Shown here piece after piece: positions 48,599 through 50,007 of a stretch of DNA of 64,000 nucleotides (its first letter is position 1; every line of letters begins with the position of its first letter). Position numbers: made by a program. The DNA comes from Escherichia coli. GTDB lineage: Bacteria; Pseudomonadota; Gammaproteobacteria; Enterobacterales; Enterobacteriaceae. The DNA is taken from the NCBI RefSeq assembly GCF_003334315.1, contig NZ_QOWR01000015.1; one strand, 5' to 3'.

Positions 48599-50007
48599 TC
48601 ACGAAAATCCAGTACCCGGCTATTGTAACGTGTTTTTCGCCTTCTTTTACGGGAATATCAGTAAACACCATCGCGATCGCGAAATTAATTCACAACAATT
48701 CAATGGCTTCATTTTTTTGGAAGTCGCCTCGCAGAAGGCACAGATCGCGTAGTGAAAGCACTTGCATTGCCTCATAGCTCTTTTACCATTAGTCATTAAT
48801 ACGCCGTTAAGCAACTCAGGACTCTATTATGGCTTTTACACCTTTTCCTCCCCGTCAGCCTACGGCTTCTGCCCGTTTACCGCTGACGCTGATGACGCTT
48901 GATGACTGGGCGCTTGCCACCATTACTGGCGCGGACAGCGAAAAATATATGCAGGGTCAGGTGACAGCAGATGTCAGCCAGATGGCAGAAGATCAGCACC
49001 TGCTCGCCGCCCATTGCGACGCCAAAGGTAAAATGTGGAGCAATTTACGTCTGTTCCGCGACGGCGATGGCTTTGCATGGATTGAACGGCGCAGCGTGCG
49101 TGAACCGCAGCTGACTGAACTGAAAAAATATGCGGTATTCTCTAAAGTGACCATCGCGCCAGACGACGAGCGTGTGCTGCTTGGTGTTGCCGGTTTTCAG
49201 GCGCGCGCCGCGCTGGCAAATCTCTTTAGCGAACTGCCTTCGAAAGAAAAACAGGTAGTCAAAGAAGGCGCGACCACTTTGCTATGGTTTGAACACCCGG
49301 CAGAACGTTTCCTGATCGTAACCGATGAAGCTACTGCTAATATGCTGACCGATAAACTGCGCGGTGAAGCGGAACTGAACAATAGCCAACAGTGGCTGGC
49401 ATTAAACATTGAAGCGGGTTTCCCGGTGATTGATGCCGCCAACAGCGGGCAGTTTATCCCACAGGCGACCAATCTCCAGGCGCTGGGCGGTATCAGCTTT
49501 AAGAAAGGCTGTTATACCGGACAAGAGATGGTGGCGCGAGCAAAATTCCGTGGTGCCAATAAACGTGCGCTCTGGTTGCTGGCAGGTAGCGCCAGCCGAC
49601 TGCCGGAAGCTGGTGAAGACTTAGAGCTGAAAATGGGCGAGAACTGGCGTCGTACCGGTACGGTGCTGGCTGCGGTAAAACTGGAAGATGGTCAGGTCGT
49701 GGTACAGGTCGTCATGAATAACGATATGGAACCGGATAGCATCTTCCGCGTACGCGACGATGCGAATACATTGCATATCGAGCCGCTGCCGTATTCGCTC
49801 GAAGAGTAAATCTCTTTATCGCATCAGGCATTTATCGCCTGATGCGACGCTGGCGCGTCTTATCATGTCTGGGATTTGATGCCTTTATCACAACAGGGAC
49901 GAGGCCCGTAGATCGGATAAGGCGTTCACGCCGAATCCGGCAGTTGTGCTCCGATGCCTGATGCGACGCTGGCGCGTCTTATCAGGCCTACAAAGGCATA
50001 CCCATTA

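Follow-up and report, generated by a model that had tools for sequence, protein, structure and literature searches.

Introduction

BIME-2 elements, as defined under the Gilson/Bachellier classification (Ton-Hoang et al. 2012, PMC3333891), are extragenic arrays in which Y-type and Z2-type REPs alternate, joined head to head by a short S linker and tail to tail by a longer one, with no IHF site and with a tandem unit whose copy number varies among strains. BIME-1 elements (RIB/RIP) are likewise intergenic and contain REPs in inverse orientation, but are marked by a long L linker, an IHF consensus and a Z1-type partner. A further described system is REP325, with six units inside the yjdM-yjdN operon; one of its Z2-S-Y units is what the Rfam family RF02564 (naRNA4) models, the units being described as Z2 plus Y (bioRxiv 10.64898/2026.03.23.713779).

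REPs have been portrayed as context-dependent 3'-UTR elements that attenuate transcription, partly via Rho, and protect upstream mRNA; convergent gene pairs with REPs show higher expression, and genes with terminal REPs show no general difference in mRNA half-life (bioRxiv 10.64898/2026.03.23.713779). Their tails can also serve as landing sites for IS621, an IS110-family element guided by a bridge RNA, for which ATCAGGCCTAC with its CT core is a naturally observed target (PMC11208160).

Here, we analysed a 64,000-nucleotide stretch of Escherichia coli DNA (the window), in which a sequence-only reading had noticed a typical BIME between the convergent genes ygfZ and yqfA (now trhA) and had proposed it as a potential site of recombination or gyrase binding. 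We compared this locus with the systems named above, with 5426 complete E. coli genomes and with the sister species E. albertii.

Results

A Y–Z2–Y array between two stop codons

Exact search of the window for the 29-mer GCCTGATGCGACGCTGGCGCGTCTTATCA gave two hits and no more, 49837-49865 and 49956-49984, both on the + strand and 119 nt apart from start to start. No chance match was obtained in 100 dinucleotide-preserving shuffles, even with up to three mismatches allowed, and similarity between the two copies reaches 34 nt at 94%. Both lie in the 195-nt gap (49810-50004) between ygfZ and trhA, genes named after the RefSeq annotation at the matching place in MG1655 and other genomes. Hence, the presence of two copies between convergent ygfZ and yqfA, as initially noticed, was confirmed by exact search and by the ORFs.

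The gap is identical at 195/195 positions to 3,042,294-3,042,488 of E. coli K-12 MG1655. Further, 76 mismatches were counted in 8001 bases aligned to K-12, showing that the window is E. coli and not K-12 itself. The element is already known, as its sequence is that of K-12 and Table DS3 of PMC6379681 contains it as a 154-nt 'BIMEs2' interval. No repeat_region is entered for the ygfZ-trhA gap in the RefSeq feature table of MG1655, and none of the papers covered by our search named ygfZ, yqfA and REP together. Tandem Repeats Finder reported no repeat in the window, because the 119-nt unit is present in only approximately 1.3 copies. A scan of the gap for sigma-70-like promoters and intrinsic terminators returned neither. 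Two ORFs that run over the repeat, at 49926-50084 and 49954-50157, were discarded as mechanical, being made of REP sequence and antisense trhA.

The components of the element were resolved by comparison with the Y and Z2 REP sequences given in the methods of Durrant et al. 2024 (PMC11208160), the Z2 type being assigned by match to the published Z2-type REP with no Z1 consensus set beside it. The identities obtained (Table 1) bore out the membership in REP families, and the whole element, at 49819-49991, practically coincides with the 49820-49990 claimed before.

Table 1. Components of the ygfZ-trhA element and flanking genes (window coordinates)
Feature	Position	Strand	Details
ygfZ CDS (context)	48829..49809	+	326-aa ORF; TAA stop 49807-49809
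Truncated inverted Y REP, head only, TCGCATCAGGC	49819..49829	-	11/11 match to published Y sequence
Y-type REP copy 1 (Y1)	49837..49872	+	exact 29-mer; 32/34 identity to published Y REP, then divergent
119-nt composite unit (Y, linker, inverted Z2, S)	49837..49955	+	lost or gained among strains
Tail-to-tail linker between Y1 and inverted Z2 REP, 35 nt	49873..49907	.	also conserved in E. albertii
Z2-type REP, inverse orientation	49908..49942	-	31/35 identity to published Z2-type REP TGCCGGATGCGGCGTAAACGCCTTATCCGGCCTAC
Z2-S-Y unit, Rfam RF02564 (naRNA4) match	49911..49988	+	75 bits vs gathering score 59.5, E = 7e-14
Head-to-head S linker, 12-13 nt, GTTGTGCTCCGAT	49943..49955	.	aligns to Rfam naRNA4 consensus linker
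Canonical Y-type REP copy 2 (Y2)	49956..49991	+	36/36 vs published Y REP GCCTGATGCGACGCTGGCGCGTCTTATCAGGCCTAC; exact 29-mer
IS621 target ATCAGGCCTAC	49981..49991	+	natural bridge-RNA recombinase target, tail of Y2
trhA (formerly yqfA) CDS (context)	50005..50664	-	219-aa ORF; stop 50007-50005

Of an inverted Y REP, the remnant TCGCATCAGGC retains the final 11 nt; it begins 9 nt past the ygfZ stop and is followed, after a 7-nt spacer, by Y1. Its complementarity to the 5' arms of Y1 and Y2 is perfect, and it forms inverted repeats with both. The body of Y1 is intact, while its tail reads ATGTCTGG in place of AGGCCTAC, so that Y1 has neither CTAC nor an IS621 target. CTAC is present in Y2 and in the Z2 REP, the latter appearing on the + strand as GTAG followed by the hairpin. 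The tail-to-tail linker holds ATGCCTTT, which is complementary to AAAGGCAT at 49992-49999, and the 12-nt core of the S linker, TTGTGCTCCGAT, is the part aligned to the naRNA4 consensus linker.

REPs are imperfect palindromes of about 35 nt in extragenic DNA, with GTAG/CTAC conserved at the foot. The element lies between two stop codons, and its CTAC-bearing Y2 and Z2 components fold as imperfect hairpins, as REPs do. Together with the Y REPs, the inverse Z2-type REP, the short S linker and a unit number that varies among strains (see below), this identifies the element, on sequence comparison, as a BIME-2. Four matches to the IHF consensus WATCAANNNNTTR were found in the window and none within 49810-50004; a BIME-1 with an IHF site was ruled out, as the element carries no such consensus. 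It also differs from BIME-1 in having no long L linker, in its Z2-type rather than Z1-type partner and in that it can be present in more than one copy. The description as a typical BIME therefore stood, with the alternating REPs, the S linker and an RF02564 match above threshold all in agreement, and was refined in two respects. The related units said to lie between the two copies proved to be one, the inverted Z2-type REP, and not several; and 'tandem' is apt for the composite unit, which repeats directly, but not for the REPs themselves, which alternate in orientation. Compared with the BIME-2 family at large, the element is small, comprising one full unit plus a terminal Y, has lost the CTAC tail of Y1 and bears an extra truncated inverted Y head upstream.

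The unit number varies in steps of 119 nt

Across the sample of 5426 complete E. coli genomes, the ygfZ-trhA locus was found in one piece in 5301. The long allele present in the window, defined by its middle 90 nt, was carried by 2035 genomes (37.5%). Approximately 60% of the genomes have a short allele instead, with a span of 482 vs. 601 nt, from which exactly 119 nt are missing and in which the half-REP and a single Y REP are kept. The middle segment was doubled in 8 of the 5426 genomes, and in the three-Y allele of strain ETEC1716 the gap extends to 314 nt, with 2.2 copies of the 119-nt unit at 100% identity. At the DNA level, the ygfZ-trhA BIME is thus unstable in 119-nt units, of which E. 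coli has 0, 1 or 2 copies. This loss and gain across the 5426 genomes, along with IS621 insertions in 111 of them (see below), bears out the proposal of a potential recombination site.

In the six complete genomes of E. albertii sampled via the TrhA protein, the same array was found, with a 201-nt gap where it has one unit and a 439-440-nt gap where it has three. Both linkers included, the one-unit form is colinear with the array of the window (mean column identity 89%), which identifies the arrays of both species as orthologous by alignment; a divergent E. coli strain, E69, has the long form too. Since E. albertii shares the colinear array, the array is older than the split between the two species. 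For the short allele of E. coli, a deletion between the direct Y repeats is the best reading, and the single Y of divergent short alleles supports it by its resemblance to the trhA-proximal Y of E69. The change in unit number probably proceeds via the 29-34-nt direct repeats, by recombination or slippage between them, or else via TnpAREP (RAYT) activity.

Outside these two species, a different pair of Z-type REPs occupies the same gap in Pseudocitrobacter faecalis. We also observed that a draft contig of E. albertii NBRC 107761 (NZ_BBMY01000128.1; L009, 1-60) ends inside the orthologous BIME, 58 nt past the trhA stop, a break that may stem from the repeat.

The tail of Y2 is an IS621 insertion site

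In the window, the IS621 target at the end of Y2 is empty. By contrast with this empty site, E. coli 12867 (L006, 3391-4669) carries IS621 within Y2, with the junctions ...ATCAGGCCT|IS621...ACAGTATCT|ACAAAGG, so that the insertion point is the CT core of ATCAGGCCTAC. IS621 was present at the same locus in two further genomes that were checked (L020 and L021). Since an earlier junction query, which returned 1129 genomes, was confounded by other BIME-2 loci, the trhA-side junction was used instead, and this query, anchored in trhA, put the number of complete genomes with IS621 in the ygfZ-trhA gap at 111 of 5426. Such insertions explain most of the 125 cases of a locus that is not in one piece. 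The last Y REP thus offers, in its CTAC tail, an insertion site that IS621 uses. In this the locus resembles other natural IS621 targets, Y2 ending in the exact target sequence, whereas Y1 offers none. Given that approximately 60% of E. coli genomes have no extra unit and that 2% have IS621 in the array, the full array is dispensable.

Predicted RNA structure on both strands

RNA folding gave -85.5 kcal/mol for the + strand (z = -5.05 vs. shuffles) and -88 kcal/mol for the - strand (z = -5.85 vs. shuffles). In the predicted fold of Z2-S-Y2, two canonical hairpins are closed by GUAG/CUAC pairing. However, the fold predicted for Y1 is non-canonical, since its 5' arm pairs with the upstream remnant TCGCATCAGGC in a perfect 9-11-bp hairpin and not with its own 3' arm; in the short allele, too, the half-REP is predicted to capture the 5' arm of the lone Y.

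We aligned 12 Y copies of this locus from E. coli and E. albertii, and 91.7% of the cells formed standard pairs, compared to 31-55% in a control in which the partner columns were slid. At pair 13-20, GC has changed to AU in three sequences, and at pair 7-26 one sequence has AU for UA; these compensatory changes amount to modest covariation support from 12 related sequences.

As regards the pairing between the remnant and Y1 (window 49819-49847), it comprises 11 bp with a 7-nt loop and out-competes the canonical REP hairpin in RNA folds. The pairing is preserved in strain 13P460A, where the remnant has an A-to-T change and the Y arm a T-to-A change, and in E. albertii the remnant is degenerate.

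A likely role in the 3' UTRs of ygfZ and trhA

Both ygfZ and yqfA are well expressed in K-12 RNA-seq (bioRxiv 10.64898/2026.03.23.713779). As the gap yielded no other terminator, transcripts of both genes should run into the REP hairpins. With both genes transcribed into the element, each mRNA would end in stable REP hairpins, which would block 3'-to-5' exonucleases and may act as a partial, possibly Rho-assisted, bidirectional terminator limiting convergent read-through. By analogy with REPs elsewhere, we infer a likely role in both 3' UTRs, that of a barrier formed by hairpins and of a partial terminator. Against such a role stand the dispensability of the full array, the unchanged mRNA half-life of genes with terminal REPs in general (bioRxiv 10.64898/2026.03.23.713779), the modest covariation and the non-canonical fold predicted for Y1.

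The instability of the array invites a different explanation, namely a selfish or neutral REPIN-like doublet array, maintained and amplified by TnpAREP/RAYT and recombination, which confers no locus-specific benefit on ygfZ or trhA and persists at convergent gene ends since insertions there are harmless. The polymorphism in presence and copy number, the decayed tail of Y1 and the half-REP upstream, the tolerance of IS621 insertion and the different REP pair in Pseudocitrobacter are all consistent with such an array, as is the finding that TnpAREP acts on BIMEs in vitro and has been proposed to drive their amplification (PMC3333891). In sequence features, too, the element resembles the substrates of RAYT/TnpAREP and the REPINs: an inverted REP doublet is present, its spacer is short, Z2 and Y2 have the GTAG/CTAC tetranucleotide, and the Y REPs show the G·T and C·T stem mismatch needed by TnpAREP (PMC3333891). 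The doublet is heterotypic (Z2 with Y), however, unlike those of REPINs. Against neutrality, the array has remained colinear since before the split of E. coli and E. albertii, hairpin pairing has been kept with some compensatory change, and REP-bearing convergent pairs are higher in expression genome-wide; moreover, a neutral origin is compatible with a 3'-UTR role and not exclusive of it. On these grounds we consider an array of no local benefit possible, if somewhat unlikely.

Structure near both stops could also dampen translation termination. In its stronger form, this explanation holds that terminating ribosomes stall at these structures, leading to mRNA cleavage, rescue by tmRNA and lower levels of YgfZ and TrhA. 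A lowering of translation has been reported for REPs at less than 16 nt from a stop codon (Liang et al. 2015, cited in PMC12306157), a range into which the distances here may fall: the first hairpin starts 9 nt past the ygfZ stop, and Y2, its GTAG included, comes to within 13 nt of the trhA stop codon. Counted from the base of its stem, however, Y2 lies 17 nt from the trhA stop, and the structure nearest to ygfZ is a remnant hairpin rather than a canonical REP. We regard ribosome stalling as an unlikely explanation of the element.

Coming back to the 3'-UTR role, the allelic series (Y; Y-Z2-Y; Y-Z2-Y-Z2-Y; with or without IS621) could conceivably constitute a heritable, coding-neutral dial on both convergent genes, a speculation that we put forward with considerable reserve and deem improbable. 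Were it true, the number of hairpins, and with it the read-through, would differ in both 3' UTRs, and capture of the 5' arm of the first Y by the half-REP would give the ygfZ side an alternative, non-canonical fold.

Gyrase cleavage and the naRNA4 family

The locus had also been proposed to bind DNA gyrase, and a strong binding and cleavage site could form a topological barrier between convergent transcription units. In line with this, cleavage sites are over-represented in the BIME-2 class, with a preference for Y REPs (PMC6379681), of which the ygfZ-trhA element has two. Yet only a subset of BIME-2 elements is cleaved, and Table DS3 of the same K-12 Topo-Seq study contains the entry 'BIMEs2 3042100 3042254 154 0 0 0 0', that is, zero cleavage sites under four conditions (PMC6379681). 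The 154-nt span of this entry equals the distance from the start of Y1 to the end of Y2 (49837 to 49991), and the next entry, 2792 nt on and 27 nt long, falls at 52629-52656 of the window, on a REP-like palindrome after bglA. As both the span and the position of the next entry agree, the entry is the ygfZ-trhA BIME. The published map thus gives the proposed gyrase site no support, and sets this element apart from the cleaved members of its family in K-12; we consider a gyrase-based barrier here very improbable.

The palindrome after the bglA stop, between bglA and ygfF (window 52629-52657), is a perfect REP-like sequence of 27-28 nt, ACCGGATGCAA-TACTTG-TTGCATCCGGT, and is itself listed in Table DS3 as a short 'BIMEs2' interval with zero gyrase sites (PMC6379681).

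The match to RF02564 raises the idea that the Z2-S-Y unit is processed to a putative naRNA4-like sRNA that condenses the nucleoid with HU. The match exceeds the gathering score on the + strand, with the inverted Z2-type REP as its first hairpin, and the unit aligns over the full 77-position model, sharing the hairpins and linker of REP325. The two loci differ in setting, however, with one unit between convergent genes at ygfZ-trhA vs. the six within the operon. Further, RF02564 in effect models any Z2-S-Y unit of a BIME-2. The nucleoid-organising role once proposed for naRNA4 is disputed, one preprint having failed to reproduce it (bioRxiv 10.64898/2026.03.23.713779), and the Rfam name therefore does not denote a function. 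An sRNA of this kind at ygfZ-trhA appears to us extremely improbable.

Other repeats and RNAs in the window

A Hamming-distance scan found a sole other REP cluster in the window, at approximately 19974-20071. It belongs to a second BIME (window 19916-20123), which has arcC (+ strand, end at 19910) on one side and yqeB (- strand, end at 20131) on the other and consists of a Z-type REP (19974-20007, +) and a short Y-like REP (20036-20071, -) arranged tail to tail. It is flanked by a perfect 28-nt direct repeat, the terminator-like hairpin AGGCCGGGTGGGTAATACCATCCGGCCA, at 19916-19943 and 20096-20123. This BIME is a clean 180-nt presence/absence polymorphism, its filled form occurring in 1649 of the 5426 genomes and the empty sites having one copy of the hairpin. 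Since the bases just upstream of each AGGCCGGGTGGGTAATACCATCCGGCCA copy are also similar, the duplication is longer but diverged; such a long flanking duplication is not expected from a RAYT-type insertion.

A whole-window Rfam scan recovered 6S RNA (ssrS) at 63498-63681 (+) with 139.8 bits and a tRNA gene at 6504-6574 (-), both ordinary and unrelated to the BIME-2. Weak Rfam matches in the window (RT-4, DicF, miRNAs) were all far under their thresholds and were rejected.

Discussion

Taken as a whole, the ygfZ-trhA element is very probably best explained as a BIME-2, composed of Y, inverted Z2, Y and a remnant Y head, that lies in the 3' gap between two convergent genes and would act in their 3' UTRs. 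The correct label for it is therefore a BIME-2/REP cluster, and not a gene, an sRNA or a new kind of terminator; beyond this correct annotation, its significance is slight.

The single locus nevertheless documents three things: the gain and loss of a BIME unit, followed over 5426 genomes and a sister species; a landing site for IS621; and a BIME-2 that is uncleaved by gyrase in the K-12 map. With regard to the second, the presence of IS621 in this REP tail in many genomes may go back to repeated hits or to one inherited event. For the family, the ygfZ-trhA BIME-2 serves as a reminder that the properties of a class need not hold for each of its members.
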